A DNA stretch of 64,000 nucleotides from Rhodothermales bacterium (GCA_965116435.1 OZ220686.1:831456-895455), one strand, 5' to 3'; positions 6,101-28,747 are shown, counted from the stretch's first letter. A program made the numbers and translations. Notes: a model not told the origin generated them from the letters alone.

Positions 6101-9100
6101 TCACTTGATAATCGCAAACGTGCCGGTGTGCTCGCCGACGCCGGGCGCTTCCACATGATATATATATACGCCGTACGCAGCGGACAATCCTTCTTCGCTT
6201 TGCAGGTTCCATTCCAGCGTGCCGTCCAGCAGGGACGCCGGATCGAGGCCGTCGTTGCCGCCCTCGGAAAGGCGAAGCGTGCGCACGAGGCGCCCGCTTA
6301 CCGTATAGATGCGGACCGTGGCTTGCGGAGGCAGGTGAATGAACTTGATGACGCGCGGCCCGCGGCCCGTGCTGAACGGGTTAAGCCCTTCGAACGAATT
6401 GGTCGCTACGTAGGGGTTGGGCACGACGCGAATCTGGTCCAGCATATCCCGGGCCGCCTCCAGGTCCACTCCGGGGCCGGTGGCGGTAAATTCAAACGCA
6501 TCGGTGGCGAGAAACGGCTTTCGGGTGATGATGGTGACGACGTCGCCCTCTTGCGGATCGCGGTGGTCTCCGAACACAAAATTGAGGCCGATGCGCCAGG
6601 TAATGACGGGATCGCCGTCGTCGTCGCCCACCTTGGTTTCCCGAATCACGATAAAATCGCTCTCGCCAATGCCTGCATCGGCGGTCCAGGAGGCGGCGGC
6701 GGTCGAAACGGACGAGACGAAATCGGCGCCAGTGATGTCCCAAAAGGCATATTCGACCGGAACCTCCGTACCGTCCGGGAGCAAACGATACACCTCTATG
6801 TTCGTCGGACGGGCAGGCAGCGTAAGCCGCCGGGTGACCTGCATTTCAATGGATTGTCCCTGTCCGGCGCCAACCACCTTCACCCGGTAATCGAACGGAT
6901 TGCGCAAGCCGCGCACGAACCCGGCGGACGTATGCGGGTCCAGGGAGACGGGATAAATGTCGTCGCTGTTCCAGGCCGTTTCCGCCTTGTTGAGCAGAAT
7001 GAATGGTTCGGGGAAAAACGACAGGCTGAACCCGATGGGATCGCCGTCGTCGGCCAGCAAGGGAAATTCCCTCCCGGAGCGAAACGCGGTGGAGCGGCGC
7101 AGCAACGTGTCGTCCGCCGTAATGTCCACGAGCGAGAAATTTTTGGTCGTCAGGGTGTCGGGACTGAAGCGCCCGCCGGAGATGAGCGTGTCCTCGAACA
7201 CGATGCGGAACCGGCGATTGTCGGCAATAGCAACCGGATCGATAATGTTGTAGAGGATGCGGCTGCTTGTAGTCCCCGCCACGCGCTCCATCTCCCCGAG
7301 CGTGGGGTCTACGTAGCCAGCCACGGGCGCGGCGGGCGCGATTTCCACTACATTGGGGCCGGTCCGGATGGAGCCGTCCGGGAGCCGCTGAATGCGGATG
7401 GGGGTTTCGGTAGGCGGAATATTGTCCTCTGCGGAACCGTAGTCGTAGGCCGTGACGGCGTAGAAATACGTCACGCCGTTCGTCACGTCGTCGTCCACGA
7501 AAAGATGCGCGAGGCCGTTGCTCCCTTCGCCGGGGCTGACGCGGTTGTCTCCCAAATAGAACTGGATGCCGTTGATGTCCACCGGATGGAACCCGCCGAA
7601 CCCGTCGATGAGGTCGAATTGCGCGATGGGCTTGCGCAAAAGCCGGTTGCCGAACCCGTCCGTAATGATCTGCGGGTCGAGGAAGGCCGGGTCCGTGGAG
7701 CGATAGATGCGGTACCCCTCGAAATCGTTCGGCTCGCGCCCGAGGCCCGCCAGGAACTGGTCGTAGGACTGCTCCGAAATCGCATCCCAGTAGAGCGTCA
7801 CCTTGCCGTCGCCGGGGACAGCGCGCAGCGTGGGCGTGATGGGCGCCTGGGCGAACTGGTAATCTTCGTGGTAGGCCTGGAGCGCATAATCCCTCGACTG
7901 GAGCGCTTCCTCCTGGGTCCCTCCCATCACGACCGCCAGCGAAATGCGTTCGGTCTGGCCCGCCTTGAGCGGGAAAATGCCGCTGGACACCGTGATGTCG
8001 GTGTCGCCGGGATCGGGCAGTTCCGTGTCGAAATTGCCCGGCAACATGAAGCGGCGGAACAGGTATCGGTCGGAGGAACTGCCGATCCCGAGGGTCCCCG
8101 CGCCGAAAATGCGCACGTTCGTGATGCCGATCTGGTCCGATTCGGAAATATCCGTCACGTCGATGTTGCGTTCCCCGGGAAAGCCCGTGCCGGCGCCGGA
8201 CGTGGGCATGGCGTCGTTGTCGCCGGGATCGCCGTTGAACGCCACCCCGTCCAGTCCCGTGTCGTTGAGGTAGCGGTTCCAGTCCTTGTCGTTGTCTATC
8301 CCGTCGGCCCGGCTCTCGTCGATCATTTCGTCGATGTCCTCGTCGATGCCTTCGTCCACGGCGCCGTCGTTGTCGTTGTCCACGCCGTCCGCATAGGCCT
8401 TGCCCACGTCCTCAGGCCCCACATCGTACAGCACGATCCCGGCGCCGGGGACGCGATACCGCCGGTACAGGTCGGAGGCGGCGGCGTCCGCCATTGCCTG
8501 CGTAACGGTGGGCGACCCCGGTTCGGCGAGGTAATTCGACGCATCGAGGTGCGTATCGTTGTTGTCGATCCCGTCCCGAAACGCACGACCCACGTCGTCC
8601 TCCTCCACGCCCACAAGATGGACTTCCCGCACGCCCGGGTCCGTGGCCAGCACGGGCGGCCACCGGCGCCAATGGTCCGACGCAGCCTGCGCCGCCATGG
8701 CCTCGGTAACCACCGGGCTGCCTGCTTCCCCGTCCCCGTCGTTGTCGATATAATCCGCATACCCCACCCCCGACTGCGGGATGCCGCTGGCCGTCACGAA
8801 CGGCACGTGCGTTCCGTTCTCGTCGATCAGGCCGTTGCCGTTGTCGTCGAGGGCGTTGGTGGGATTCTCGCCCTGCAGGAACGAGGGGGGAATCACCGGG
8901 CTGTTGCATTCGCTGATCACGGGATTGCAGGTCTCGGAGGTGGAGCCGTCCCCGTCGTTGTCGATGCGGTCCACGGCGTTGCCGGGCGATTCGAGGAATG
9001 CGAACGTGGCCACGCCCACCGGATCTGCCCCGAAAAATTCGTTCCCCACGCCGTCCAGGTCCGTCATGAAGGCGACGTCCTCCAGCAAGTCAAAGTAGGG

Positions 9101-14605: not shown

Positions 14606-14870
14606 TTGCGCCCTGTGGTGAGTGCGGGGGTTGGGGGTTGCGCCATGCGGTGAGCGCGGCGGCTGGAGCATCGCGCCCTGTGGCGAGCGCAGGAGTCGGG
14701 GCATCGCGCCCTGTGGCGAGCGCAGGAGTCGGGCATCGCGCCCTGTGGCGAGCGCAGGAGCTGGGGCATCGCGCCCTGTGGCGAGTGCGGGGGCTGGGGC
14801 ATCGCGCCCTGTGGCGAGCGCGGGGGTCGGGGCTTGCGCCCTGTGGTGAGTGCGGGGGTTGGGGGTTGCG
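14606..14870. repeat. GC-rich tandem array, about 8 units of 32-33 bp
   Basis: Unit GCATCGCGCCCTGTGGCGAGCGCAGGAGTCGGG starts at 14668, 14701, 14733, 14766 and 14799, with degenerate outer units. The array is bracketed by an identical 37-mer, TTGCGCCCTGTGGTGAGTGCGGGGGTTGGGGGTTGCG, at 14606-14642 and 14834-14870. There are no unique spacers. Confidence 0.9.
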
Positions 14871-15375: not shown

Positions 15376-17532
15376 ATGAAACGCCCCGCTCTGCCTTGCC
15401 CCGCCCCGCCTTGCCGCGCTATGCCATCCCGCCCCTGGACCGTCTTGCTGGCGGTATGGTTATGGCTCCCCCTCGCCGGACTGCCCTGTCAGGCGCAAAC
15501 GGCCAACCCCGGGGGACACGGCGCGGACGAATCCTTGGCGACGTCTGACGGCCTGATCGGCATGTCCGAATCCATGACGACGTCCGACGGCCTGACCCGC
15601 ATGCCCGAATCCATGGCGACGTCTGACGACCTGATCGGCATGCCCGAATCCATGCCGATGTCCGACGGCCTGACCCACGTGCCCGAATCCGTGGCGATGT
15701 CCGACGACCTGATCCGCGCGCACGAATCCATGGCGACATCCGACGACCTGACCCGTGTGCCTGAATGGAGCCGCGAAGCAATCTGGTATCAGATTTTCGT
15801 GGAGCGATTCCGCAACGGCGACGCTTCCAACGATCCCGTGTTCGAGAACACCGAAGGGGCATACCCCAACCGACCCTTCGAGGGATGGGCCCCTACCCCC
15901 TGGACGCACGACTGGTATCGACAGGAAGACTGGGCCGCCGCGTCCGGCGAGGAATTCTACCGGACCGTGCAGGCCAGACGATACGGGGGCGACCTGCAAG
16001 GCGTACTGGACCAGCTCGATTACCTCGAAGCGCTGGGCGTGACGGCGCTGTACTTCAATCCGATCAACGACGCCCCGTCGCTGCACAAGTACGACGCCCG
16101 GACCTACCGGCATATCGACCGCCACTTCGGACCGGACCCCGCCGGAGACGCAGAGATCATGGCGGCGGAAAATCCGGCGAACCCCGATACCTGGCAATGG
16201 ACCGCGGCGGACCGGCTTTTCCTGGACCTCGTCGCCGCCGTGCACGAGCGCGGCATGCGCATCATCCTCGACTATTCATGGAATCATACGGGGATTACGT
16301 TCTGGGCATGGCAAGATATTCTGGAAAATCAGGCCGACTCGCCCTATGCGGACTGGTATGAAATCGTGCGGTTCGACGACCCGGCCACCGGGGAAAACGA
16401 ATTCGAATACGAAGGCTGGGCAGGCGTTTCCACGCTCCCCAACCTGAAAAAAGTCGAGGTGGAGACCAAAGGGCTGGAGGGCGGAAACCTGCATCCCGCC
16501 GTGAAACAGCATGTATATCATGTGACGCGGCGCTGGATGGACCCCAACGGGGACGGCGACCCGAGCGACGGCATAGACGGCTTTCGGCTCGATGTGGCGG
16601 AACAGGTGCCCAAAGGATTCTGGCGCGAGTACCGGGCCTTCGTGCGCGACCTCAACCCGGAGGCGTACCTCGTGGGCGAAGTATGGTGGGAAAGCTGGCC
16701 GGACCACATGGCCGATCCGGTGCCCTGGGTGCAGGGCGACGTGTTCGATGCGGTGATGAATTACCGATGGTATATGCCCACCCGGAGCTTTTTCGCGCAG
16801 GCGCCGCCCCGCCTTACGGCCACCGGCTATATCGCGCACCTCGATTCTGTGGAGCGCGGGATCGACCGGGCGCATCTCGAAGCCATGATGAACCTCGGGG
16901 CCAGCCACGATTCCCCGCGCCTGGGCACCTCGCTCTACAACCGCCAGACCAAATACAAATACCAGGCGCACCCCCGGGGCAACCCCGAGTACAAGATCGA
17001 CCGGCCGGACGAACGGACGGAGGCTGTGCGGCGTCTGGTGCTGATCCAGCAGTTTACGTACTACGGCGCGCCGCATATCTGGAACGGCGACGAGGTGGGC
17101 ATGTGGGGCGCGGACGATCCCGACTGCCGCAAACCGCTCGTGTGGGAGGATCTTTCGTACGAAGACGAACACGCTATGCCCCATGCGGCGGCGAGGCGTG
17201 CGAACCCGGTGGCGCCGGACCTGGACTTGTATGCATTCATCCAGAACCTGGCGCGCATCCGTACGGCGCACACGGACCTGTTTGTGCGCGGGACCCTCGA
17301 CTATGTGCTGGCCGACGACGACCGGCGGCTGCTGGCGTATATCCGGGCGCTGGAGGACGAAACGGCGCTCGTGGCGTTCAATGCCTCCGACGAAACGCAT
17401 ACGGCGGTCCTTCCGGTCGAAGGCGCTTTTCGGAATGCGCTGGCGCCGGAAACCCCGGCCCTGCAGTCGGAGCAAGGGCGCCTCACCCTGAAACTCGCTC
17501 CGCTCACGGCCATGATTCTGGTTCGGGAATAA
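15376..17532 (+). CDS. GH13 alpha-amylase-family glycosidase (cyclomaltodextrinase/neopullulanase-like) with repeat-bearing N-terminus
   Basis: GH13 conserved regions are present: GVTALYFNPI, RIILDYSWNHTG, DGFRLDVAEQV, YLVGEVWW, LGASHDSPR. An alternative start at 15421 gives MPSRPWTVLLAVWLWLPLAGLPCQA. Confidence 0.85.
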   Translation: MKRPALPCPAPPCRAMPSRPWTVLLAVWLWLPLAGLPCQAQTANPGGHGADESLATSDGLIGMSESMTTSDGLTRMPESMATSDDLIGMPESMPMSDGLTHVPESVAMSDDLIRAHESMATSDDLTRVPEWSREAIWYQIFVERFRNGDASNDPVFENTEGAYPNRPFEGWAPTPWTHDWYRQEDWAAASGEEFYRTVQARRYGGDLQGVLDQLDYLEALGVTALYFNPINDAPSLHKYDARTYRHIDRHFGPDPAGDAEIMAAENPANPDTWQWTAADRLFLDLVAAVHERGMRIILDYSWNHTGITFWAWQDILENQADSPYADWYEIVRFDDPATGENEFEYEGWAGVSTLPNLKKVEVETKGLEGGNLHPAVKQHVYHVTRRWMDPNGDGDPSDGIDGFRLDVAEQVPKGFWREYRAFVRDLNPEAYLVGEVWWESWPDHMADPVPWVQGDVFDAVMNYRWYMPTRSFFAQAPPRLTATGYIAHLDSVERGIDRAHLEAMMNLGASHDSPRLGTSLYNRQTKYKYQAHPRGNPEYKIDRPDERTEAVRRLVLIQQFTYYGAPHIWNGDEVGMWGADDPDCRKPLVWEDLSYEDEHAMPHAAARRANPVAPDLDLYAFIQNLARIRTAHTDLFVRGTLDYVLADDDRRLLAYIRALEDETALVAFNASDETHTAVLPVEGAFRNALAPETPALQSEQGRLTLKLAPLTAMILVRE
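15529..15762 (+). repeat. In-frame 39-bp x 6 tandem repeat (13-aa unit ESMATSDDLIGMP) inside the amylase N-terminus
   Basis: Six consecutive GAATCC(A/G/T)TG...units of exactly 39 bp sit between the signal peptide and the catalytic domain. Confidence 0.9.
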
Positions 17533-17724
17533 GGCATGGGCGTTATTAAGGTTGCGGCTTGGGTCTGGAACACATAAATATATGTAGTACAAGAAATTAA
17601 AACAAGAACGTCAAGGGAGGATATAAAAAATTTGGGGGTTGGGAACTTTATATAGGTGCAAACCTTACAAAATGCAACTTTGTTGCCTTAAGCTGGTTGA
17701 CTTGGGGCTTCACGGAATCACAAA

Positions 17725-17866
17725 GGTTATTATAAAGCATGCTTGACATTCTCGTTTTTTCGTCGTATACTGGAGGGAAACAGAAGAGAAAAACAACCCC
17801 CAGACCGATGAAAGCCTCCGGAAACCCAAGAAACTAAAGGTCGTCAAGCATTCTTTATAATAATCA
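17725..17866. repeat. MITE-like element copy 1 (about 142 bp, 21-bp terminal inverted repeats)
   Basis: TTATTATAAAGCATGCTTGAC (17727-17747) pairs with GTCAAGCATTCTTTATAATAA (17843-17863) at 20/21. About 90% identical to 18735-18874, in the same orientation. Confidence 0.8.
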
Positions 17867-17887: not shown

Positions 17888-18730
17888 ATGAACACAGAAA
17901 AAAATAAAATTACTGTAGATGCAGAAAAGAAAACTATAATGGGGATTGCGATTGGTGCAGGCACGATCTCGTTATTCCTATATTTTTTTGATGCTGTTCC
18001 TATAATGATCACAGCCTTTCTTAGTTTGATGCTGACAAGCCTATTATATGCTTTTTTGGGAGGCATCAAAGATGCCGAACTGAAATGGAAGATGGGAAAA
18101 ATAGGTGGTTCATTAGCGGGTATGGCCATTTTGGGAATTTTTATCAATCCCGAACTGGAAAAATACAATCCACCAATTAGCCCAATTGCCCCCAACCCTA
18201 ATTCATGGATAGCCGTAGACAGTAGTGGATCATTTATTTCTGTTACCATCGGGAAAGAAACGTACTCGAAAAATGTTACAGAATTTTTAAGGAATGCAGA
18301 ATGGGGTGTTGAAATAGATTCAACGTTGATCTGGATTACGCAAGGAAATCGACATTTGGCACAACTTGATCCTATGGCGATCAAGCAAGTTGGCTTTTTT
18401 GACTCTATAAAAATGAGTCCTGGGAAGGGCATACAATATACTGAACAGCTGACGGTTGGAGCGGAAGCAAATCTAACACCCACTTACCCTTTTACTATTC
18501 GTGCCACACAATTCAAAGATGAATATAACGAATTTCAGATTTTGAACGAAAATAATGAAATTATTCTCGAGCGCGGATTGCTTCGAACAAAGAATTTCCG
18601 GGCATTTGAATATGACGAAAAACACTATCTTATTTTTGTCGTACGGGCAAACCACATTGACACCGAACGTGGGCCGTGGTCTGTTTTCGGACTAACACAG
18701 ATTACTCGTACATTGAGCATAGCTCAATGA
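17888..18730 (+). CDS. Hypothetical 3-TM membrane protein with a soluble C-terminal domain of about 170 aa
   Basis: 280-aa low-GC ORF. It has hydrophobic helices IMGIAIGAGTISLFLYFF, IMITAFLSLMLTSLLYAFLGG and IGGSLAGMAILGIFI. The overlapping antisense ORF 17710-18483 runs into the repeat and was rejected. I recognise no family. Confidence 0.6.
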   Translation: MNTEKNKITVDAEKKTIMGIAIGAGTISLFLYFFDAVPIMITAFLSLMLTSLLYAFLGGIKDAELKWKMGKIGGSLAGMAILGIFINPELEKYNPPISPIAPNPNSWIAVDSSGSFISVTIGKETYSKNVTEFLRNAEWGVEIDSTLIWITQGNRHLAQLDPMAIKQVGFFDSIKMSPGKGIQYTEQLTVGAEANLTPTYPFTIRATQFKDEYNEFQILNENNEIILERGLLRTKNFRAFEYDEKHYLIFVVRANHIDTERGPWSVFGLTQITRTLSIAQ

Positions 18731-18734
18731 CGCG

Positions 18735-18874
18735 GGTTATTATAAAGCATGCTTGACATTCTCGTTTTTTGTCGTATACGGGAGGGAAACAGAACAAAAA
18801 CCAACCCACAGAGCAATGAAAGTCCCCGGAAAGCCAAGAAACCAAAGGTCGTCAAGCATTCTTTATAATAACCA
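18735..18874. repeat. MITE-like element copy 2 (about 140 bp)
   Basis: GGTTATTATAAAGCATGCTTGAC ... GTCAAGCATTCTTTATAATAACC. It starts 4 bp after the stop codon of the 17888-18730 gene. Confidence 0.8.
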
Positions 18875-18911: not shown

Positions 18912-19202
18912 TTAATATAGAAACCTCTTATTTAATCCCCTCATAAGGTCTTTGTTTCGTATTTTTGGTTGTATAACCCGGGGATTACAAACCAAAATAA
19001 CCGCTCCGCTCCTGGAGCGTAATTTCAACCAAGCCGCCCGGAGGGGCAGAATGACATAAGCAAATCCTACCTGCAACAACTGATCGACACGCTCGACGAG
19101 AAACTCCCCGTCGAGTGTCCTGACGGAAACATATCCACGAAGGACTTCTACATCGACATCTATTTCAAGCCGTCCGAGGTAAGAGACGAGTACGGCAATC
19201 AT
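18912..19202 (-). CDS. Hypothetical small protein (96 aa from the ATG; ORF track starts at TTG 19271)
   Basis: Co-directional with and immediately downstream of the 19280-19645 ORF. No recognisable motif, so coding status is uncertain. Confidence 0.3.
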   Translation of the reverse strand: MIAVLVSYLGRLEIDVDVEVLRGYVSVRTLDGEFLVERVDQLLQVGFAYVILPLRAAWLKLRSRSGAVILVCNPRVIQPKIRNKDLMRGLNKRFLY

Positions 19203-19279
19203 CGTATTGCAGGCCCGCCGTGCTACGCGGCAACAATAGGCTTGATAAGAAACTCGTTGAATCCCTGGCAAAGTACGCG

Positions 19280-19645
19280 CTACAAGGGGTGCCGCCGTAC
19301 TTGGTCTTTGCCGATGCGAAAGACAATGTTGGTGCCTAACCCCCTACGGTTTGGCTCTGGCAAATCTATTCTGTCTGTTTCCCATGCTTCGTCTCCGTTG
19401 ACCTCAAGTTGCCATTGGACATCTGTTGCAAGCCTGTATAGATCGTCGGCAATTTTGTAGGGGATACCCCTAAGGGAAATCTTCCAATGGACGGGACCTG
19501 GAAGTTTATTTCCCGACGTGTCTATGGGTTGGCCGTCTGGAGAGAACTCCGTGATTTCCGAGGTTTCCGAAGCGTCAATCAGGATGTCGCTGGAGAAGTC
19601 ATCGTGCTTGTCAATCTTGTAGCGGGCCCTTTTGATGGTGTACAT
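19280..19645 (-). CDS. Hypothetical protein (121 aa)
   Basis: ATG-initiated ORF 117 bp downstream of the HAD gene on the same strand. No recognisable motif. Confidence 0.4.
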   Translation of the reverse strand: MYTIKRARYKIDKHDDFSSDILIDASETSEITEFSPDGQPIDTSGNKLPGPVHWKISLRGIPYKIADDLYRLATDVQWQLEVNGDEAWETDRIDLPEPNRRGLGTNIVFRIGKDQVRRHPL

Positions 19646-19762: not shown

Positions 19763-20356
19763 TTATAGCTGAGCAATCTCGCCGAACGTTAGCAATTCTG
19801 TCTCGTCTACCCTTGGGACCCTATCGCCGTAGCCGAAGGATGCCCATGCAAACCGAATTCCTGCATTGCGGGCAGCGGCAGCATCGTCCTCTCGGTCACC
19901 GACGTAGACGACTTCACACGACACAGTCTCCTTCAGTGCCTCTAGTGCTAAAAGGATGGGACGCGGGTTGGGTTTATAAGTACGACATATCCCCGGATGC
20001 ACGATCGTCTGAAAGAAATTGTAGATTCCAGCTTTGGCGAGCATCGGAATTGCAATAGCACCGGACAAGCTAGTGACAATGCCAAGCTTGGTGCCTCGGT
20101 CGGAAATCTCACTAAGGCTTGCCATAACCTCAGAATATAGGGGGATCGCCTCGTGGGTGTCCTCAATCATCCGGATCAGGCGGCTCCGCGAGACACCGAG
20201 GTCTTTGCTTAGACTGATAAGCGACTTCCCCTGCCGGAGTTCGCACTCGATATGGTCTACAATAGCTGCCCCAGTGCGCCCAAGCACACGGCTGTACCAA
20301 GGATAGCTGTCCCAGACGGTGCCATCTAAATCAAGGAGTACGACCCTGGTAGCCAT
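19763..20356 (-). CDS. HAD-superfamily phosphatase (phosphoglycolate-phosphatase-like)
   Basis: Motif I VVLLDLDGTVWDS, motif II GIVTSLSG, motif IV VYVGDREDDAAAARNAG. The start overlaps the 3' end of the DprA-like gene by 31 bp. Confidence 0.8.
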   Translation of the reverse strand: MATRVVLLDLDGTVWDSYPWYSRVLGRTGAAIVDHIECELRQGKSLISLSKDLGVSRSRLIRMIEDTHEAIPLYSEVMASLSEISDRGTKLGIVTSLSGAIAIPMLAKAGIYNFFQTIVHPGICRTYKPNPRPILLALEALKETVSCEVVYVGDREDDAAAARNAGIRFAWASFGYGDRVPRVDETELLTFGEIAQL

Positions 20357-21303
20357 TCCAAAAACTCTTGCTCCGATGTATCGGTGGTGAACAACGCATC
20401 GTCATGCTGAAGTTCCTCACCGATCTTGGCGTTCCCCGAGGTATCTTCCCGTCCGTCAGTCTTGCATGTAGCGACAGGCTTCTTCTGCTCCCTGGCAAAT
20501 CGATAGGCGTTCATTGCTCCACCTTTCAGCGACGATTGACTGACGAATACCGCTCTTGAGCAGGCCACGATAAGCTTATTCCGCTTGCGAAGCGTCAGCT
20601 TGGATGCACCAGTGCCGAAAGCAAACTGGCTCAGCATTACGGCACCCGTGTATTCGAGGAGTTGCTTCCACAGACCACCATTCTCGGGTGGAAACGGGCG
20701 ATCCAATCCCCCCGGAAGAATGCAGATTGTAGCCCCGCCCTTTTCGAGCGCAGCCCGATGACCAATGGTGTCTGCCCCAAGTGCGAACCCTGACCCAATC
20801 ACAAAGCCCGCTTGCACAGCGCCAGAGGCCAAAACTGTATGAATTCGGGAATACGGCCGCCGAATCGCACGCGATCCAACGCATGCAACGACAAGTTCAG
20901 ACCGTAGAACCTCACAGTTTCCCCGTGCATAGAGTACTGGCTCAGGGATGTTGCTGTGGAAAACGTTGGTGGGGTAGCAGGGGTGTCGATATGTCAATAT
21001 TACTCCCTGCAACTCTTTGGCCCGCCGAATCTGGCGTTCTGCCCGCGCCCACGCGGTGTTGCGGGTTTCGTCTGTCATCTCGGTAATTGCGGTACGGAAC
21101 TGCTCACCCCTCTTTCCCCTAATGGGAAGTATCCTGTGATCGTCTAACACATTGACTGGATCCAATCCGGCTTCGTACAACTGCTTGAACTTCTGAGGAC
21201 CAAACTGGTTGATCGAATCCAGTGCATAGATGCTCGCGAGTTCTCGGACGTTTGGACCACTTGTTGATATGTCGGCGGCTACCTGTCGCATGAATTCGCG
21301 CAT
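20326..21303 (-). CDS. DprA/Smf-like SLOG Rossmann-fold protein (island-borne)
   Basis: VACVGSRAIRRPYSRIHTVLASGAVQAGFVIGSGFALGADTIGHRAALEKGGATICILPGGLDRPFPPEN aligns by eye with the DprA Rossmann core (GSR..., SG.A.G.D..H..AL, G.d...P.en). Preceded by an N-terminal helical domain. Confidence 0.8.
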   Translation of the reverse strand: MREFMRQVAADISTSGPNVRELASIYALDSINQFGPQKFKQLYEAGLDPVNVLDDHRILPIRGKRGEQFRTAITEMTDETRNTAWARAERQIRRAKELQGVILTYRHPCYPTNVFHSNIPEPVLYARGNCEVLRSELVVACVGSRAIRRPYSRIHTVLASGAVQAGFVIGSGFALGADTIGHRAALEKGGATICILPGGLDRPFPPENGGLWKQLLEYTGAVMLSQFAFGTGASKLTLRKRNKLIVACSRAVFVSQSSLKGGAMNAYRFAREQKKPVATCKTDGREDTSGNAKIGEELQHDDALFTTDTSEQEFLEWLPGSYSLI

Positions 21304-21336
21304 CTTGATCGAGTAAGGGTCACTTGGGCCGGCGGC

Positions 21337-22308
21337 TCAACTCCGTTCCGTGTGGAACAGACTGAGTGCAAACACACTTCTAACACCCTTCTCAAGGAGC
21401 ATGCATGCTGCCGTCTTCATCGTGGCCCCCGTTGTGATGATGTCATCCACAACGGCAACTCTACGCCCATGTAATACCGGATCCTTAGGCACAGCCCAAG
21501 CGCGTCTCAGTGCTTTCTCGCGGGCCTTTCCAGAAACCATTCTGTGATTCTCATAGTCACGGATAGTCGTGATCGCCTCCCTGATAGGGATGGCCAACTC
21601 GTCTCTTATTGCCTCGGCCAACTCTTTGGGAATACAACCTCCCCGCTCCTCTGCACGTGAATGGGATGTCGGGATCGGAACGAGAGCGTCTACGGCTCTG
21701 ACAAGCGGAGTATGGTGGCACATGTAAGAGGCTAGCAAAAACCCTACAAATCGGCTCACCGGTCTCTGTATCTCCTTTTTCTGCAAACGAAGGATCTGGC
21801 TCATGGGATCCGCCCATTCCCTATCCCATTGGCGGGACCGGTAAGATGCAGCCGCATAGACGCCTTCAATGGCAGAATCAAATCGCTTTGTTTTCAGTTT
21901 CCGCGACGGCGAGACACCAATCTTATGGTGAGCACATGTTGCGATCGCATAGAGATCCCTCCCTCGGCACGAATCGCATTCGTCCTCGAAGCGTCGGGCC
22001 ATCTCTCGGAGGTCTGATGTCTTCCCCCGACGGATTCGCAGAAGGTGGATCCGCTCTTCAATGAGAAAACGATTGATGGGCGAATCGTTCGGAATCCTCT
22101 GCAGTTCTTTCTTGGCCTCACCGAAGCGGTGAGCCACAATCATTTCGCTGGCAAGTCGGTAACGAGCCTCGCTTTCAACCGCTCGGCTCTCACGCGTCTG
22201 CTCGGAAAGCAGCTCAAGCCACTCAAGTGCTTCAGACGGATTGTACGATGATTCGAGACTCTCCTTTGCTCGACAGATGATATACTGGTCGCTGAATGCC
22301 AAACCCAT
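21337..22308 (-). CDS. ComF/ComFC-like phosphoribosyltransferase-domain protein with N-terminal extension
   Basis: C-terminal PRPP-binding loop RRVAVVDDIITTGATMKTAACMLLEKG. A Cys/His cluster CDSCRGRDLYAIATCAHH lies upstream of the PRTase fold. About 110 extra N-terminal residues are helical. Confidence 0.8.
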   Translation of the reverse strand: MGLAFSDQYIICRAKESLESSYNPSEALEWLELLSEQTRESRAVESEARYRLASEMIVAHRFGEAKKELQRIPNDSPINRFLIEERIHLLRIRRGKTSDLREMARRFEDECDSCRGRDLYAIATCAHHKIGVSPSRKLKTKRFDSAIEGVYAAASYRSRQWDREWADPMSQILRLQKKEIQRPVSRFVGFLLASYMCHHTPLVRAVDALVPIPTSHSRAEERGGCIPKELAEAIRDELAIPIREAITTIRDYENHRMVSGKAREKALRRAWAVPKDPVLHGRRVAVVDDIITTGATMKTAACMLLEKGVRSVFALSLFHTERS

Positions 22309-22376
22309 AGTTCACATCCGTTACTTAGAAATGGTCCGGGAAATTCGGACAGGTCGTTTATTAGGATTGCGCTGGG

Positions 22377-22726
22377 TCATGCCGCCTCCGGCAGCACCTT
22401 TCGTCTGTAGTATACGTCGCAGGGCGTCAAGTTGTCAAGGCCCTGGTGCGGATTTTTTTCGTTGAAGTAACCGATGCGCTCTCGCGCCTCGACTGGCCTT
22501 GCATACGCATGCAGATTGATCTCTTCCACCTTGGGTTGCGCCAGAAGCGCTCCACGTACACATTGTCCAGCCACCGGCCCTTCCCGTCCATCGTGTTAGA
22601 GACGCGGTACGCAAGCGCCTTGCGGCTGTGCCAGTCGATCACCGCCGTCAGGTACATGGCGCCGCGCGCCATCGGGATGTACGTAATGTCCGCCGCATAC
22701 GCATGGCCCGGTCTGTCTATCGTCAT
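22377..22726 (-). pseudogene. IS3-family transposase OrfB (DDE integrase core) remnant
   Basis: AADITYIPMARGAMYLTAVIDWHSRKALAYRVSNTMD jumps directly to GKGRWLDNVYVERFWR, so the central catalytic region is missing. The frame then shifts to ...VEEINLHAYARPVEARERIGYFNEKNPHQGLDNLTP. Confidence 0.8.
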
Positions 22727-22752
22727 GGTCTTGAGCAGGGCCTTGCGCTCGG

Positions 22753-23046
22753 CTACAGGCCGCGACCGAGCGCTTGCGATAAAAAATCCTTCTCCATCGA
22801 CAACTGCCCTATCTTGGCGTGAAGCGCCTTAATCTCCTCCTCGCGTTCGCCGGAAGGGGCAGAGCGGCCTCGGGCGAATAGCTCTGGGCCATGCTCCAGC
22901 GCATGTCTCTTCCAGGACTGTATCTGGTTCGGATGCACTTCAAAGCGGGCGGCGAGGTCCGCCAGCGTGCTGTCGCCGCGTAGGGCGGCGAAGGCCACCT
23001 TCGTCTTGAAGGCGGGGCTGTGGGGTCTACGGGTGCGTTTGGGCAT
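22753..23046 (-). CDS. IS3-family transposase OrfA (HTH)
   Basis: MPKRTRRPHSPAFKTKVAFAALRGDSTLADLAARFEVHPNQIQSWKRHALE is the typical IS3/IS911 OrfA N-terminus. A leucine-zipper-like tail follows. Confidence 0.8.
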   Translation of the reverse strand: MPKRTRRPHSPAFKTKVAFAALRGDSTLADLAARFEVHPNQIQSWKRHALEHGPELFARGRSAPSGEREEEIKALHAKIGQLSMEKDFLSQALGRGL

Positions 23047-23170: not shown

Positions 23171-26080
23171 CTAATGGCGTACGTGCAGTGTTGGTTCAAG
23201 GGCAAGTTTTTGTGTAAGTTTTTCAACGACCGAAGGCTCAATATTGAGCACATCTTGGCATAGTCTGGCATTCAATTCGCAGCGCACAGGGTCAGTTACA
23301 AGGCCACTAAATCCCTGCAACAACTTCCCTTTCAAATTCTCGTAGATATCTACAGCCGTTGCAAGTTGTTCATTCGACAGTTTGTTTACATCCAATATCG
23401 GAAGTGTCTCAGATAGTTCATGAGTGAGTCTAGATCTGCCTAAGTACGGCCTATTGCTGTGTAGGATTCTAAGCAAAAGGCCTGGTGTGGAGTTTAGCCA
23501 CAAACATAAAGCTTCCTCTTTTCCCAGTGCAGGAGATCGAGGTATAAGTGTAATCCACGAACTAACACCAAGCATTGGGGTATTTGTCAATACTGCTGCC
23601 ACTCGTTGTGGTGCCATACCCAGATCACAAGCCAATTGCAGACGCCCCTGACGTGCGAGCATCGCATCTTGGGTAAAAGGATCTCTATCACTGCGTCGTT
23701 CAAGACGTGCATCGGCTTTTGCTTCGAGAGTAGTGTTCCTTATCGATTTGTGGTGCCAAAGGACCGGAATTCCAGTCCGCAGATTGTCGTTTGTCTCAAA
23801 AATATTAAACAAACCTTGTTTGGGATTCTTGACCTGCATATGGTAAGGCCCCAAATCCATTACAACCTGCAATTCCGTCAAGGGAACACTAGCCAATGGA
23901 CCATATGCACTAGTGCGCATACCCTCCGCTATCAACGCCAATTCCGATTGTGCAAATGTCGTATATGACCAAGCATCATCTGTTAAGTTTTTCTGTGGGA
24001 CCGCGATCATACTACCCCAAGCTGTCTCGCCAATATCTATACTTCTTGACTCAAGAGAAACAGCATCCTCATCCATTGCAAGTAGCTTACGCATCAGGGT
24101 CATAGCTTCCACTGGTTCATCTGGGTTATGAATTAGATTAACAAATTTAACTTCACTACGATTCAAACTCAAGACATCTTTCGTAGCAACGATCAGTACC
24201 TCGGCAATACGCGTTGATTCCGAAAACGAAACCCAGCGTCGTCCTGGCAGGCCCTTTTTGGCACTCCGATTGCGAATGTCGTGACTTACAATGACCCAAT
24301 CAATCGCATACTTACTCAACAGTAACTGTCTTATTCCACTCCATCGACTTCCCGTCAGCATTGTCGCTGGTAGTACAAAAGCGATGCGTCCATTCACAGC
24401 CAAATTTTCATCGGCAAGTACTACGAAAGCTGATCCCAAGCCCGCATAAAGACTCGCGGGAGTCCCTTGCAAAGATTTCTTTAGTGACGCTTTCATCTTC
24501 TCTGCATCACCCGCATTAAGAAGAGACCCAAATATTGGGTTCCAGAGAGTATTTTTTTTGTCGCCCGGGCCGCCTGCTCGCGTATAGGGGGGGTTCGCAA
24601 TAATCAGATGGCACTCACGGGGCATGATGACATCATCATCTACTTCACCAGTACCCGTAACTCTTACCGAGACTTCTTCTTCGAATAGCGGGAGTCGAGC
24701 TGCATTTCCTTTACTGGGTGAACTAACGAGAAAATCCAAACTACCCAAGCGTGGCACACCATCGTCCACATCGTGTCGTACGCGCCACAGATTCATATCT
24801 TGTATGAGCTGCCGCGCTTCTGCCATGCAAAGTGTAGAGGCCGCCAAATGAATCGCCGCTGGAACCACATCGAAACCGTACAATGCCCTTTCTAATACGA
24901 ACCGCACTACTTCTCGTTCATCTGCCAACATAGATCCACCGCGACGCCCATGCTTGAGAATTTCCTGCGCTACTGCCATCAGCAAAGTGCCGCTTCCACA
25001 TGCTGGATCTACAATTCGCAAGGTGGCTACGGATTTGGGATCTGAGAAATCGATTTGAGCCCAGCACTTGTTGCGCTCGTCGAATGCCAGTCCCGCAAGC
25101 AGAATCGCTGCGGGGATAGTTGTATAGTTCGTTGCGAGAAACTTTCTCGAATCCAAAAGTCGATGAAAAATTCGACCCGCCACATCGTGGCGGCGTATCG
25201 CGCCGATCTCCGCAATCTCCGCCGCCGCCTGCTTCAAAACACTTACTGCTTGACGGTTGGTCGGTGCCGGTGTGGTTTTTAACGTCTCTTTGGCGATGTG
25301 AAAAATCGGCCACCAGTTGATTTCCAGTATCTCAATCCACTGCCGCACTAAATGATCCGGTCCACGCTCTGGATCAGGACGCAGAATACGCTTGCTGTGA
25401 TGTTCTGGCGAAAGTAGCGAAGTGTCCAAATGTCGAGCTAGAAGCTCTTGGAATAACATTGCATTGAGCCAAATAAGTGCCTTTGTTGCAGGGCCGTCCT
25501 GTTGCTCACTTCGATTTTCTGGATCAACCCTCGAAAGCACGTCACCTGCAACCTTGATGGCTTGCGCCGCACGCCTTACTGTTTCTTCAATACCAATTCC
25601 ATTATCACTTTGTATCCAGTAGTCGCGCAAAATCTCCGCAAGTGTTGCAACACTCCCCACCGTTTCTTCGCTCCAAGGATCTCCAAAATACCGGTAGGCA
25701 ATAACCAAGTCCTCACACGATGCAAGATTTGATTCTGTCTGGCTTTCGGGAAGCTCTGCCAGCCTTGGAGGGTAGCCGACAGCAACCACGAGCCGCACCG
25801 GCAGACCATTCACTATTGCTGGTGCGTCATCCAGCAGCCTCTTGTCTGCGTCAGATTTCGCGGGGCTTCCAAACTCGGCTTCAACAACCACTGCATAGTC
25901 GTCAAAGTCAAGAAGAACGTCAGCCTGACCGTGAGAATCGCCAAACACACGACGCTGCTCCCCTTCCGCGCTTAATCCTTCGAGGCGGAGTAGCCGCGCT
26001 AATGACAAGTTGTAGGCGACTTCCGTTGAGTTGCTATTCATGCTACGTGAAAAGGTTCGGTTCGTCCAGTTCAGTTCCAT
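23171..26080 (-). CDS. N6-adenine DNA methyltransferase fusion protein (type IIG/IIL-like; putative N-terminal PD-(D/E)xK-like module, gamma-class MTase, C-terminal specificity region)
   Basis: 969 aa, low GC. Motif I LRIVDPACGSGTLLMAV and motif IV HLIIANPPYTRAGG. The post-catalytic block IAFVLPATMLTGSRWSGIRQLLL is typical of Eco57I/MmeI-like enzymes. The N-terminus GQADVLLDFDDYAVVVEAEFGSPAK is nuclease-like but lacks a canonical ExK. Confidence 0.75.
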   Translation of the reverse strand: MELNWTNRTFSRSMNSNSTEVAYNLSLARLLRLEGLSAEGEQRRVFGDSHGQADVLLDFDDYAVVVEAEFGSPAKSDADKRLLDDAPAIVNGLPVRLVVAVGYPPRLAELPESQTESNLASCEDLVIAYRYFGDPWSEETVGSVATLAEILRDYWIQSDNGIGIEETVRRAAQAIKVAGDVLSRVDPENRSEQQDGPATKALIWLNAMLFQELLARHLDTSLLSPEHHSKRILRPDPERGPDHLVRQWIEILEINWWPIFHIAKETLKTTPAPTNRQAVSVLKQAAAEIAEIGAIRRHDVAGRIFHRLLDSRKFLATNYTTIPAAILLAGLAFDERNKCWAQIDFSDPKSVATLRIVDPACGSGTLLMAVAQEILKHGRRGGSMLADEREVVRFVLERALYGFDVVPAAIHLAASTLCMAEARQLIQDMNLWRVRHDVDDGVPRLGSLDFLVSSPSKGNAARLPLFEEEVSVRVTGTGEVDDDVIMPRECHLIIANPPYTRAGGPGDKKNTLWNPIFGSLLNAGDAEKMKASLKKSLQGTPASLYAGLGSAFVVLADENLAVNGRIAFVLPATMLTGSRWSGIRQLLLSKYAIDWVIVSHDIRNRSAKKGLPGRRWVSFSESTRIAEVLIVATKDVLSLNRSEVKFVNLIHNPDEPVEAMTLMRKLLAMDEDAVSLESRSIDIGETAWGSMIAVPQKNLTDDAWSYTTFAQSELALIAEGMRTSAYGPLASVPLTELQVVMDLGPYHMQVKNPKQGLFNIFETNDNLRTGIPVLWHHKSIRNTTLEAKADARLERRSDRDPFTQDAMLARQGRLQLACDLGMAPQRVAAVLTNTPMLGVSSWITLIPRSPALGKEEALCLWLNSTPGLLLRILHSNRPYLGRSRLTHELSETLPILDVNKLSNEQLATAVDIYENLKGKLLQGFSGLVTDPVRCELNARLCQDVLNIEPSVVEKLTQKLALEPTLHVRH

Positions 26081-26506
26081 TGATCTTGCAGTTAGATCAG
26101 TTATTCTGTCACAGGAAGATACGATTCTAATCGAAGCCTGTCAAGTAAAAAGAATAATTTGGGAATTATAGACAATCCTTGACAAGGACTACTTTCTCGG
26201 CGGAGGCTTGATCCCCGCCTTGCGATCTGCTTGGTCGCAGATGAGATTCGCTACGCCCTCCAAGTCCTTCATGCTGGCGAGCGGCTCCGAGCGATCAGGA
26301 ACCGGCTTCGCCTTGCACGGAAGCAGCTGGGAAACTATGGTTTTGCGAATACGCATGGCAGTAAGATAAGTCTTCTCACCGAGAAAGTCAAGCCCCTGTC
26401 GCAGAAAATGGACGAGCCATGAACAGATTCAGATGGTTCCGGGCGGACTTTACCTACAGGATAAGTATAAAAACCCGTTACTTCCATAATTTTCGAAAAA
26501 ACGCCT

Positions 26507-28747
26507 TCAATATCGCTTCTTGCTCATCAATTGGGCTTCATACTTTTTGTAATTATCACCCTTTAGTTTATTAGACATTGTAGACATCAGAACTCTTGCA
26601 CGTGCTTCATCAATGTCACGCATATTCTTAGCTTTACCCATTACATCTTTAAAAATTCTTTCTCGCATACGATTGGATAATCTAATGCCAAGAAGGGTAG
26701 GAAAAATAGTGGCATAACTTTTTCGTACTGCTTCTGTCGTGGGTGATAGCGCCACAAAATTAAGTATAAATTCAGGGCGTATTATGTATTTTGAACCCTT
26801 TGACTTCACTAGCTCTTTAGTACATCTCATAACTCTGGTCTCATGAGTTAACCACCATGTACGATAACCGTATGGATTCGGGTGATGGTTTTCCATTAAT
26901 TTTCTGCGTTGCCCATAAACAGCAAGAATATGTCGAGCATCATTACGAGCTAATACATCCTCAGATTTTACCGAACTAATTTCATTCGAGAGTTCTTGAA
27001 CTTCATTGTCAGTCACAAGTTCGTTCACATCATTCTTGTCAAGATATTCAAAACCAAATTTTTCCATAAGATAATCCCTCACTTCATCACAAGATAGTGT
27101 CCTCTTATGGAGATCTTCATAACTGCATATCTGACCAATAAAAACTTCCCAACTGACAGGACGTTTTTTCAATAGTGGATCGAACTTAGCGTGAAAATAG
27201 GCACGAATTAAAATCTTGCCTGCATGACGCGCTATCTCTTTATCTACATCAGGCTCGAGTACTTGAAAAGATTCCCGAAACTCGTGGTCAGAAACTTTAA
27301 TATGAGAATGGATTTCCTCGACAGCCATGTGTGTGAGAATCAAGGTTGAGCCTGCCTCTCGGAGTATACGAAGCATGTTAACGGTCATCTGATCCGCAGG
27401 TGCTAGATATCTTTCAGACAAAGCTCGAACAATGATGTCAGAACCGACAAGCAGTACAAAATTGGACGACATACTCTTGAAATATTCTACAATTCTGGGT
27501 TCATTGCGAAGTGTAAGCATCAAGGCATATGTACGTGATAACTTGCCGTAATACAGACGTTCCTCCTCGGTACTATTATAGAATCCTTGTCTGAGCACGG
27601 CCAACACAATCTCCTTTGCTTTTACAGCGTCCGTACCAGGTAAAGAAAATTCATTAATTGCGCTATCTACCTGATCCGCAACGGTGAAGTCATAATCGTT
27701 TTCCGAATCACCTGTCAAAAATGCAGACAATTCCAAGCCCTGTTGTTCGAAGGTTAGCTCAAGAGATCTATGTGTCAGCTTTGCAATTTGACTGGGAAAC
27801 AATTTTTCACCGACATTGGAAAGCTGTTCAGCTCGATTTCCATACAGTTCCATAACTTGTCGTTTAAGAGATTCGTCTTCGATATTTTCCTTAGTCACAA
27901 TTTTGCGTGTTTCGTATGGCAGACAAAATTTGTCTTCTTGTTGATACCAACGTACCTCGCGGCCTGTCGAGTTACCCTTTTGTGTCATGATTTCGATACG
28001 GCTGTCAAATGTTGTCTGAATAAAATGTTTAACTGATGGTAATACATTTTCTATTTTTTCTCGAATATTGTCACGAGTCATGAATTTGTCCTGATCGGGA
28101 TCCGTTTCATCGAGAGCCCATAAAATCAAACTGTCAGTTATCGCTTCTAAAAGGTCGATATTTCCTTGACGTAATTCAATCTCTTGACTCAGAAAAACAC
28201 ACAATGTACGAACAGGAAGGTTTTGAGAAATACCAATAGTCTTTGCACTTCCGAGTTCGTCTAAAAAGGATACAAATGAATTGAGATATGTATGATATGC
28301 CATTATACCTTGCGGTGTTTTATTGATGTTATTTATTATCCATTTTTTATCACGTATCTTAATAACAACGTTCAATTCTTTTGATAAATTTTCCTCTTCT
28401 TTATCAATCATGACTATTGTACGAGATGTCACATATAATAAAACTTTAGGATTTCGATTCACTTCTCTTAGTCTCTTAATCGTATGTCGAATTTTTTGTC
28501 GATGATTTTCTTGGGTTGTTGCTTGGTAAAACGTTGGTATACCCCTGCCTTGGAAGAGACCTCCCCCTTGGAAAGCATCCGCGCCACCATCATGAAAACC
28601 GCCTAGGGGCACAAAATCAATATCTGTAAGGGCAGCGTAGAACGCTTGGAAAAAATTCTCAAAGGCCGTCCCAGTTACTTGGTCCAGTGCAATACCGACT
28701 CGTTTGTGATTGATCATATTCATATCGTTGATCCCAAGTTGGGGCAT
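26507..28747 (-). CDS. Hypothetical 746-aa protein with variant Mrr-like N-terminal domain
   Basis: Low-GC ORF. LGGFHDGGADAF...(14 aa)...TFYQATTQ parallels the Mrr-cat pattern GDGGIDG...(I)QAK, but has Thr in place of Lys. The C-terminal half contains segments FVLLVGSDIIV, LILTHMAVEEI and ARNDARHILAVYG that could form a PIN-like fold; this is an unverified guess. Confidence 0.6.
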   Translation of the reverse strand: MPQLGINDMNMINHKRVGIALDQVTGTAFENFFQAFYAALTDIDFVPLGGFHDGGADAFQGGGLFQGRGIPTFYQATTQENHRQKIRHTIKRLREVNRNPKVLLYVTSRTIVMIDKEEENLSKELNVVIKIRDKKWIINNINKTPQGIMAYHTYLNSFVSFLDELGSAKTIGISQNLPVRTLCVFLSQEIELRQGNIDLLEAITDSLILWALDETDPDQDKFMTRDNIREKIENVLPSVKHFIQTTFDSRIEIMTQKGNSTGREVRWYQQEDKFCLPYETRKIVTKENIEDESLKRQVMELYGNRAEQLSNVGEKLFPSQIAKLTHRSLELTFEQQGLELSAFLTGDSENDYDFTVADQVDSAINEFSLPGTDAVKAKEIVLAVLRQGFYNSTEEERLYYGKLSRTYALMLTLRNEPRIVEYFKSMSSNFVLLVGSDIIVRALSERYLAPADQMTVNMLRILREAGSTLILTHMAVEEIHSHIKVSDHEFRESFQVLEPDVDKEIARHAGKILIRAYFHAKFDPLLKKRPVSWEVFIGQICSYEDLHKRTLSCDEVRDYLMEKFGFEYLDKNDVNELVTDNEVQELSNEISSVKSEDVLARNDARHILAVYGQRRKLMENHHPNPYGYRTWWLTHETRVMRCTKELVKSKGSKYIIRPEFILNFVALSPTTEAVRKSYATIFPTLLGIRLSNRMRERIFKDVMGKAKNMRDIDEARARVLMSTMSNKLKGDNYKKYEAQLMSKKRY

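Follow-up and report, generated by a model that had tools for sequence, protein, structure and literature searches.

What is encoded by three tightly packed genes, here called A, B and C, in a low-GC island of a Rhodothermales bacterium? The genes lie on the minus strand of a 64,000-nt stretch of DNA (GCA_965116435.1, OZ220686.1:831456-895455; hereafter the window), and an earlier note on this stretch had read them as a ComF-like phosphoribosyltransferase (PRTase), a DprA-like protein and a haloacid dehalogenase (HAD) phosphatase, together forming a candidate undescribed nucleotide-centric conflict system. Our analysis favours a conflict system but not one of an undescribed kind, the domain content being that of ShosTA. 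With a probability of about 0.7, we consider A, B and C to be one operon encoding a ShosTA-family, type IV-like toxin-antitoxin (TA)/abortive-infection (Abi) module in a split format. This reading is built on gene structure, domains, homology to ShosT and ShosA, residue conservation, linkage, purifying selection and a mobile/defence-island setting.

ShosTA is a characterised type IV TA/Abi system from E. coli and P2-like prophage (PMC11961720, PMC12961424), for which structures have been solved (PDB 8zva-8zvd, 9vzo and 9w2p; Pu et al., 2025, PMC11961720; Yang et al., 2026, PMC12961424). In its toxin, ShosT, a HAD-fold hydrolase (pyrophosphatase, PPase) domain with the fold of the HAD-type pyrophosphatase BT2127 is fused N-terminally to a PRTase; toxicity is abolished by the substitutions D331A/D332A but hardly lowered by R56A, which lies in the hydrolase domain (PMC11961720). 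ShosA is a DprA-like binder of single-stranded DNA (ssDNA) that does not bind ShosT (PMC11961720); it dimerises and binds RecA, with R139 and R234 essential for antitoxin function (PMC12961424). Both structural papers leave open the acceptor substrate of ShosT and the purpose of the fused "PPase" domain (PMC11961720, PMC12961424). The claim that no characterised system holds the triad therefore does not survive: the PADLOC models for ShosT and ShosA match A and B, crystallised ShosT is a HAD-PRTase fusion acting with ShosA, and the "undescribed triad" falls because a PRTase, a HAD hydrolase and a DprA-like protein are the ShosTA domain set.

The open reading frames (ORFs) and the GC profile agree with the arrangement first described, namely three co-directional genes packed with a 33-nt gap and a 31-nt overlap inside a low-GC island (Table 1), the GC content being 0.40-0.58 over ~17.6-29 kb against 0.60-0.68 in the flanks. 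The run of the end of B into the start of C suggests translational coupling, and a 31-nt overlap recurs in the related loci L003, L004, L005, L006, L008, L010, L011 and L012 (HAD identity 38-77%; loci are cited by number), the overlap in L009 being 4 nt. Gene B may begin at its second Met (21291), giving 321 aa, which is the length of the database cluster representative. Because more than 20 independent loci share A, B and C and the pairwise ratios of non-synonymous to synonymous substitution (dN/dS) are low (A, 0.13-0.25; B, 0.10-0.20; C, 0.12-0.29), the three are genuine genes and not chance ORFs.

The protein of gene A has the phosphoribosyl pyrophosphate (PRPP) loop, the Cys/His cluster and the extra N-terminus that the earlier note had reported, the last amounting to ~105 helical residues. 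It matched the Pfam family PF00156 (Pribosyltran, E 1.1e-5) and, in PADLOC, ShosT (E 3e-10) and PsyrT (E 3.9e-10), the PsyrT match being confined to the PRTase end of the model (575-685 of 689). Within the PRPP loop D288, D289, T292, G294 and T296 are invariant among 20 homologues, and D288/D289 align with ShosT D331/D332. The same 20 sequences all have C111, C114 and C125, and at least 90% of them have H127; a zinc-ribbon domain (PF18912) is present in ComF-like relatives, and the cluster is a probable zinc knuckle of ComF type. The N-terminus of the window protein and of its relatives gave weak but consistent matches to the tetratricopeptide repeat (TPR) families TPR_19 and TPR_14, and it is a possible sensor or interaction domain. 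When the AlphaFold2 (AF2) model of A (mean predicted local distance difference test, pLDDT, 83.6) was searched with Foldseek, the best solved matches were H. pylori ComFC (7p0h, at the top) and then ShosT (8zvb/8zvc/8zvd). Profile comparison with hhalign aligned the A family with the whole ShosT PRTase domain over 160 columns (94.4%, E 8.4e-8); against a single ShosT sequence the match was weak, the link being visible only with family profiles.

The protein of gene B has the DprA core assigned to it before (DNA_processg_A, E 7.6e-40, 137 bits), and this was its sole Pfam match at E ≤ 0.01. In PADLOC it was matched by ShosA (E 2.7e-41, 140 bits) and by PsyrA (E 1e-21, 76 bits), and the earlier note was right that PsyrA is DprA-like, homology between RqlI and DprA having been described (PMC4670107). 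Among solved structures B found DprA (5mll, E 3e-17, 66 bits) and ShosA (8zva/9vzo, E 1e-9, 41 bits). Its R148, R241 and R268 correspond to ShosA R139, R234 and R261, and all three are invariant in the cassette homologues (eight aligned sequences, E. coli ShosA included). With no match to a LOG-type family and with these ssDNA-binding arginines invariant, the suggestion that B might be a LOG-type glycosidase is not upheld.

The third protein carries all the HAD motifs, as had been claimed (HAD_2, E 7e-23): the four motifs of HAD subfamily IA (DxDxT, S/T, K and (G)DxxxD) are present with a C1 cap, D9, D11, G12, T13, K128, G153, D154 and D158 do not vary among the 28 members of the family, and T95 hardly does. 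The AF2 model of C (pLDDT 94.8) places a helical cap at residues 18-66. The top Foldseek matches of this model were all generic HAD-IA enzymes with near-equal scores, AlnB among them, which do not discriminate between substrate classes, and assignment of a substrate from structure was set aside. The best NCBIfam matches were phosphoglycolate phosphatase and the pyrophosphatase PpaX, all below cut-off (77.1 vs 180).

For comparison, E. coli ShosTA (L014, phage P2_4C9) was reached by tblastn of B in P2-like phage. The gene beside its Smf-like gene encodes 424 aa, a full-length match to 8zvb (977 bits), and the E. coli order is ShosA, then ShosT, with a 1-nt spacer. The best Pfam matches of the N-terminal domain of this ShosT were Hydrolase (E 6e-5) and HAD_2 (E 5e-4); many of 111 ShosT homologues have precomputed PF13419, PF00702 and PF00156 assignments, and some carry the NCBI name "HAD hydrolase-like protein". 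By hhalign of family profiles, the window HAD family matched the ShosT N-terminal domain (93.8%, E 1.7e-7), HAD residues 71-173 aligning with ShosT 31-139 across motifs II-IV. These alignments suggest that gene C corresponds to the HAD-derived domain at the N-terminus of canonical ShosT.

The completeness of the catalytic residues in C, unlike the degenerate fused domain of ShosT, makes phosphatase chemistry seem to matter, and a PRTase followed by a phosphatase has the logic of nucleoside formation. A rival explanation, along the lines of the earlier note, builds on this: the PRTase would make an unusual nucleotide out of a base and PRPP, the HAD enzyme would dephosphorylate it to a toxic or signalling nucleoside, and the DprA/SLOG protein would bind or process that small molecule and not DNA. 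AlnB, which dephosphorylates a ribose-5-phosphate adduct, is among the structural neighbours of the HAD model, although those neighbours are generic HAD-IA enzymes and neutral as to substrate. That the acceptor of ShosT is left open in the structural papers (PMC11961720, PMC12961424) also gives it room, as does the capacity of SLOG domains to bind nucleotides. Against it stand the exclusively DNA_processg_A match of B in Pfam, with no LOG-type family, and the invariance of the DprA/ShosA ssDNA-binding arginines. We regard this nucleoside explanation as unlikely; it overlaps the ShosTA reading and departs from it on two points alone, the role of B and the naming of a specific product, in place of PRPP or purine depletion, as the toxic agent.

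Whether the three genes form a unit was judged from A-anchored, HAD-anchored, named-genome and metagenome locus searches, which gave more than 20 independent loci in all; co-occurrence of the triad elsewhere, which the earlier note had proposed to look for, is thus real, and the loci usually lie beside restriction-modification (RM), Abi or TA genes. Of the seven A-anchored loci, six have a HAD-coding sequence after the DprA-like gene and the seventh has an insertion sequence (IS) element there; among the six, one HAD was uncalled owing to a TTG start and one is frameshifted on a contig of 4x coverage. A DprA-like gene stands directly upstream of the HAD gene in 4/4 HAD-anchored distant loci, in 2/2 named-genome loci and in 11/11 metagenome loci of the clade with enough upstream flank. 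The HADs of 37-47% identity are all located behind an overlapping DprA-like gene and are followed, with a 4-nt overlap, by a second PRTase paralogue, here called X, an A-type gene often being present too. Around ~60 generic HAD loci (≤33% identity) no DprA-like, A or X gene was found nearby. The unit is a DprA-like gene, a HAD gene and at least one PRTase gene. On plasmids of Bacillus cereus and B. paranthracis (matches H10-H14), tblastn of B spans genes annotated 'DNA processing protein DprA' and 'phosphoribosyltransferase', and these are probably further ShosTA-like pairs.

There is also a more conventional explanation, in which ordinary transformation comF and dprA genes, handling incoming ssDNA, stand beside an unrelated housekeeping phosphoglycolate-type HAD. 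The best named NCBIfam matches are indeed ComF, DprA and phosphoglycolate phosphatase, H. pylori ComFC heads the structural matches of A, and B is slightly nearer to solved DprA than to solved ShosA. But the scores lie far under the cut-offs (A, ComF TIGR00201, 66.6 bits against 233.55; B, DprA TIGR00732, 127.3 against 191.15, and NF008007, 93.4 against 495; C, as given above), and the HAD gene is specifically linked to, and overlaps, B as generic HAD genes are not. The A family is also rare: full-length relatives make up about 20 clusters among 5.8 billion clustered proteins, a profile search of 1.84 billion representatives gave 50 at E ≤ 1e-30, and 185,579 species genomes hold two A-type loci, in one Latescibacterota and one Gemmatimonadota metagenome-assembled genome (MAG). 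Its members are 60-80% identical across these different phyla without shared synteny, and the window locus is IS-flanked and has the composition of its low-GC island. We therefore give the transformation explanation hardly any credence, in line with the earlier view that A and B are not housekeeping comF and dprA.

The neighbours differ in every locus and often include AbiEi/AbiEii, PemK, HEPN_AbiU2, type I RM genes, DndB with a methyltransferase, helicases, IS elements and integrases. Such varied, defence-type neighbourhoods point to a mobile defence-island gene set and speak against a role in core competence. Many phages and plasmids carry DprA-like genes, IS remnants flank the window locus, and IS or integrase genes lie near L002, L004, L007 and L011, all of which would suit a mobile-element recombination or anti-defence module whose DprA- and ComF-like proteins protect or recombine the ssDNA of the element, a task that DprA homologues of phages may perform, with no TA activity. 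Yet the loci sit among RM, Abi and TA genes and not among conjugation or phage modules, and 2.9 million viral contigs contain no A-type PRTase, for which reason a viral origin of the family was also rejected. A purely DNA-handling role is inadequate because the catalytic residues of the PRTase and of the HAD protein are strictly conserved, and we judge this explanation very unlikely.

Some individual neighbours may be described here. In L005 a HEPN_AbiU2 gene (7243-8004) shares 4 nt with the beginning of the PRTase gene, an arrangement that suggests co-transcription of the cassette with a further Abi component. A DEAD/ResIII helicase gene of 1095 aa with weak PbeA/Cas3-like matches lies immediately upstream of the four-gene cassette in L003 (3988-7275), and a weak match to it lies upstream of the cassette in L013 (1291-2400); the position of these genes recalls the helicase-PRTase fusion of PsyrT/RqlH.

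Gene X complicates the comparison with the window. The commonest order in the family is B-C-X, with or without A, mostly as four genes; in the window and in the loci nearest to it (L004-L007 and L022) the order is A-B-C and X is absent. The X protein (~350 aa) is encoded directly after the HAD gene in most relatives and consists of a strongly conserved N-terminal domain of ~110 aa (FLYKI.SGYDGF...EVWVYFHG...GVY.KG), a four-Cys cluster and a ComF-like PRTase core. Its N-terminal domain had no Pfam match at E ≤ 10 save a spurious one to DUF4819, and no PDB sequence match was found outside the PRPP loop. A decayed X downstream of the window HAD gene was considered and rejected, tblastn with five X proteins recovering only the PRPP loop of gene A. 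The HAD gene has been kept in the three-gene form, since its dN/dS is low also between loci without X. In the Latescibacterota MAG locus L012, which keeps X and has an A protein 73% identical to that of the window, the A gene (1099-1997) has a deletion of ~30 nt and a frameshift and has lost the Cys cluster, and an intact, near-identical version (P0008) lies on another contig; the lesion may reflect either faulty assembly or partial redundancy between A and X.

A bolder proposal is that the cassette belongs to an undescribed multi-gene ShosTA/PsyrTA branch whose ancestral set was a DprA-like protein, an intact HAD enzyme and one or two sensor-bearing PRTases. PRTase and HAD enzyme would jointly produce a particular nucleoside or nucleotide, toxic or signalling, and not simply drain PRPP, and two-gene ShosTA would be a fused, degenerate derivative. 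We hold this only tentatively and think it rather less probable than not by a wide measure; if true, it could reveal the acceptor substrate of ShosT-type PRTases.

Several points weigh against the assignment to a split ShosTA module. The PADLOC ShosT match of gene A is weak (38 bits), and phmmer against the PDB made no connection between A and E. coli ShosT. The sequence of B is as near to genuine DprA as to ShosA, and because of this equal closeness its assignment as ShosA is mainly based on context. The alignment of the HAD protein with the ShosT N-terminal domain indicates a link at superfamily level, short of specific orthology. The canonical ShosT domain lacks a cap and the motif I Asp pair, having a "VIFSIADVV"-like sequence where HAD proteins have DxDGT, and since R56A there barely matters, its role may differ from that of an intact HAD. 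As an X-type PRTase, absent from the window, directly follows the HAD gene in most relatives, A may not be the original partner of the HAD protein. Finally, the first ~12 codons of A and its upstream region have no homology to relatives, and the break (region 22200-22470) adjoins the IS3 remnant; the adjacent IS3 event has probably remodelled the 5' end of A, so that expression of the window copy is uncertain, although the ORF itself is intact. The one promoter-like site, a match to the sigma-70 consensus, borders the IS3 remnant and is surrounded by sequence foreign to the upstream regions of relatives.

Taking the split ShosTA module as the favoured reading, toxicity, antitoxin action, a HAD substrate, a trigger and phage defence can be proposed by analogy. 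The product of gene A would be the toxin, binding PRPP through the intact DD...TTG loop; it would consume PRPP or phosphoribosylate an acceptor, and the derangement of purine nucleotide pools would lead to replication stress and DNA damage. Gene C would supply in trans a hydrolase function that is built into canonical ShosT as a fused, degenerate HAD-derived domain, either by hydrolysing the released pyrophosphate and so pulling the PRTase reaction forward, or by stripping the 5'-phosphate from the product. B would neutralise the toxicity indirectly, by ssDNA binding and RecA-linked repair and not by binding the toxin, and phage infection, through ssDNA intermediates or host shut-off, would lift this protection. 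The N-terminus of A, with its TPR-like part and zinc knuckle, is a candidate for a sensing or regulatory role.

Table 1. Coordinates of the cassette, its parts and nearby features (window positions unless a locus number is given).
Feature	Position	Strand	Remarks
Gene A, ShosT/ComF-like PRTase, putative toxin	21337-22308	minus	ORF, 323 aa
Helical, TPR-like N-terminus of A, residues 1-105	21994-22308	minus	six helices in AF2 model
Cys3-His cluster of A (C111, C114, C125, H127/H128)	21925-21978	minus	
PRTase catalytic domain of A, residues 147-323	21340-21870	minus	
PRPP loop of A (VAVVDDIITTGATM), residues 284-297	21418-21459	minus	
A/B spacer	21304-21336	minus	33 nt
Gene B, DprA-like (ShosA-like), putative ssDNA binder and antitoxin	20326-21303	minus	ORF, 325 aa
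Rossmann core of B	20437-21012	minus	
B/C overlap	20326-20356	minus	31 nt; end of B on start of C
Gene C, free-standing HAD-IA phosphatase	19763-20356	minus	ORF, 197 aa
Sigma-70-like promoter match	22409-22438	minus	TTGACA-18-TATACT, 11/12; ~100 nt upstream of A; consensus match only
IS3 fragments (HTH_Tnp_1, rve)	22427-23046		upstream of gene A
N6-methyltransferase-like ORF	23171-26080	minus	969 aa; upstream of gene A
Small ORFs D and E	19280-19645, 18912-19271	minus	downstream of gene C
X genes of relatives	L010:8579-9652, L003:8874-9968, L012:3566-4621, L013:5814-6899, L008:3394-4449, L011:8579-9637, L009:8573-9622		

The remainder of the island contains further features. A decayed IS3 and a methyltransferase had been placed upstream of the cassette, and both are there (Table 1). 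At the centre of the methyltransferase-like ORF is an N6-adenine methyltransferase domain, with weak matches of PglX/type IIG-like kind; the ORF comes after a 746-aa protein that has no match in Pfam, PADLOC or NCBIfam. The two lie within 23171-28747 on the minus strand (GC 0.41-0.52) and may form an uncharacterised defence module of their own within this island. The two small ORFs downstream of C, D and E, exist as described, but they are not part of the system: since they match no family in Pfam, PADLOC or NCBIfam and tblastn was negative in all related loci except L001, they lie outside the unit. L001, a Logan metagenome contig (run ERR14375725), encodes cassette proteins 100% identical to those of the window.

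Beyond D and E, a ~160-nt element occurs in two copies (17716-17866 and 18726-18874; 88-91% identical), each with terminal inverted repeats of 21-23 nt (GGTTATTATAAAGCATGCTTGAC ... GTCAAGCATTCTTTATAATAACC) ~95 nt apart. The copies resemble miniature inverted-repeat transposable elements or cassette boundaries, and they bracket a 280-aa ORF on the plus strand (17888-18730; GC 0.40) that is hydrophobic-looking and has no family match. Two tandem-repeat arrays, both coding, are located at 14608-14864 and 15528-15766. In one array, which lies where the GC skew is strong, a 33-nt unit is repeated 7.9 times and gives rise to PQGAMP-like peptide repeats within a 693-aa ORF on the minus strand. In the other a 39-nt unit is repeated 6.1 times, and the resulting SESMxTSDxL repeats stand at the N-terminal end of a 718-aa ORF (15376-17532) that is glycosidase-like by eye. 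No flanking direct repeats (att sites) were found for the whole island, and tRNA and Rfam scans of the window gave no match, nor did a comparison with plasmids aimed at the host.

No description of a split, multi-gene ShosTA variant was found in the searchable literature, and the novelty appears to be one of organisation: split genes, an intact free-standing HAD, new N-terminal domains on the PRTases and a four-gene parent family. No new principle of immunity is involved. As the family separates the modules of ShosT, it offers a natural genetic dissection in which the HAD protein can be deleted or assayed alone, and the direction of evolution, fusion with decay or fission, can be studied in a setting where the PRTase comes in two paralogous forms, A and X, with different N-terminal domains. 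Annotation tools that expect two genes and a fused ShosT probably miss such loci or mislabel them as comF, dprA and phosphoglycolate phosphatase. The loci also extend ShosTA-like systems, in a different gene format, to environmental phyla (Latescibacterota and Gemmatimonadota).

Set beside known systems, the cassette shares parts with several. Competence comF and dprA are core genes that are normally not adjacent. A follows the ComF-type plan, in which a metal-binding Cys cluster precedes a PRTase, and among solved structures it matches ComFC best, but ComF/ComFC proteins have ~190-240 aa (zinc finger and PRTase) and A is longer by its TPR-like residues. B shares the Rossmann core of DprA. Unlike the competence genes, those of the window are island-borne, rare, patchy and linked to a HAD gene, their relatives share no synteny, and both proteins fall well under the equivalog cut-offs. 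The existence of the SLOG superfamily, and of reported SLOG-PRTase gene pairs, is confirmed by a secondary source; Pfam places B with DNA_processg_A and not with the LOG-type members. By its motifs I-IV and C1 cap, gene C belongs to HAD subfamily IA; its best NCBIfam matches include PpaX and phosphoglycolate phosphatase, and BT2127 is the published fold match of the ShosT domain, whereas C reaches no curated equivalog cut-off and its clade is defined by obligate linkage to DprA-like and PRTase genes.

PsyrTA/RqlHI pairs a genotoxic, PRTase-dependent toxin with a DprA-like antitoxin, as A and B may do, and the PADLOC models for PsyrT and PsyrA match the two proteins, ShosA outscoring PsyrA. Its toxin is a RecQ-like helicase fused to a PRTase; A has no such helicase domain and no helicase gene lies beside the window cassette, which, unlike PsyrTA, has a HAD component.

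ShosTA differs from the cassette mainly in format. It has two genes, against three in the window (PRTase, DprA, HAD) and four in most relatives, and it begins with ShosA where the window begins with the PRTase gene. The window HAD is a separate protein with a cap and four catalytic motifs, its ShosT counterpart being capless and without the motif I aspartates, and the N-terminus of the window PRTase is TPR-like with a Cys3-His cluster where ShosT has the HAD-derived domain. The two PRTases are detectably related only by profile or structure comparison, and the window family is rare, its only two named-genome members being environmental MAGs (Latescibacterota and Gemmatimonadota). What is shared is the set of modules, a PRTase, a HAD-fold hydrolase and a DprA-like ssDNA binder, encoded by adjacent, co-directional genes in a defence island or mobile element. 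The acidic pair of the PRPP-binding loop is conserved between ShosT and A, by analogy a toxin, and the three ssDNA-binding arginines between ShosA and the adjacent B, and the E. coli order, ShosA followed by ShosT (HAD-PRTase), is collinear with B-C-X of the four-gene relatives.

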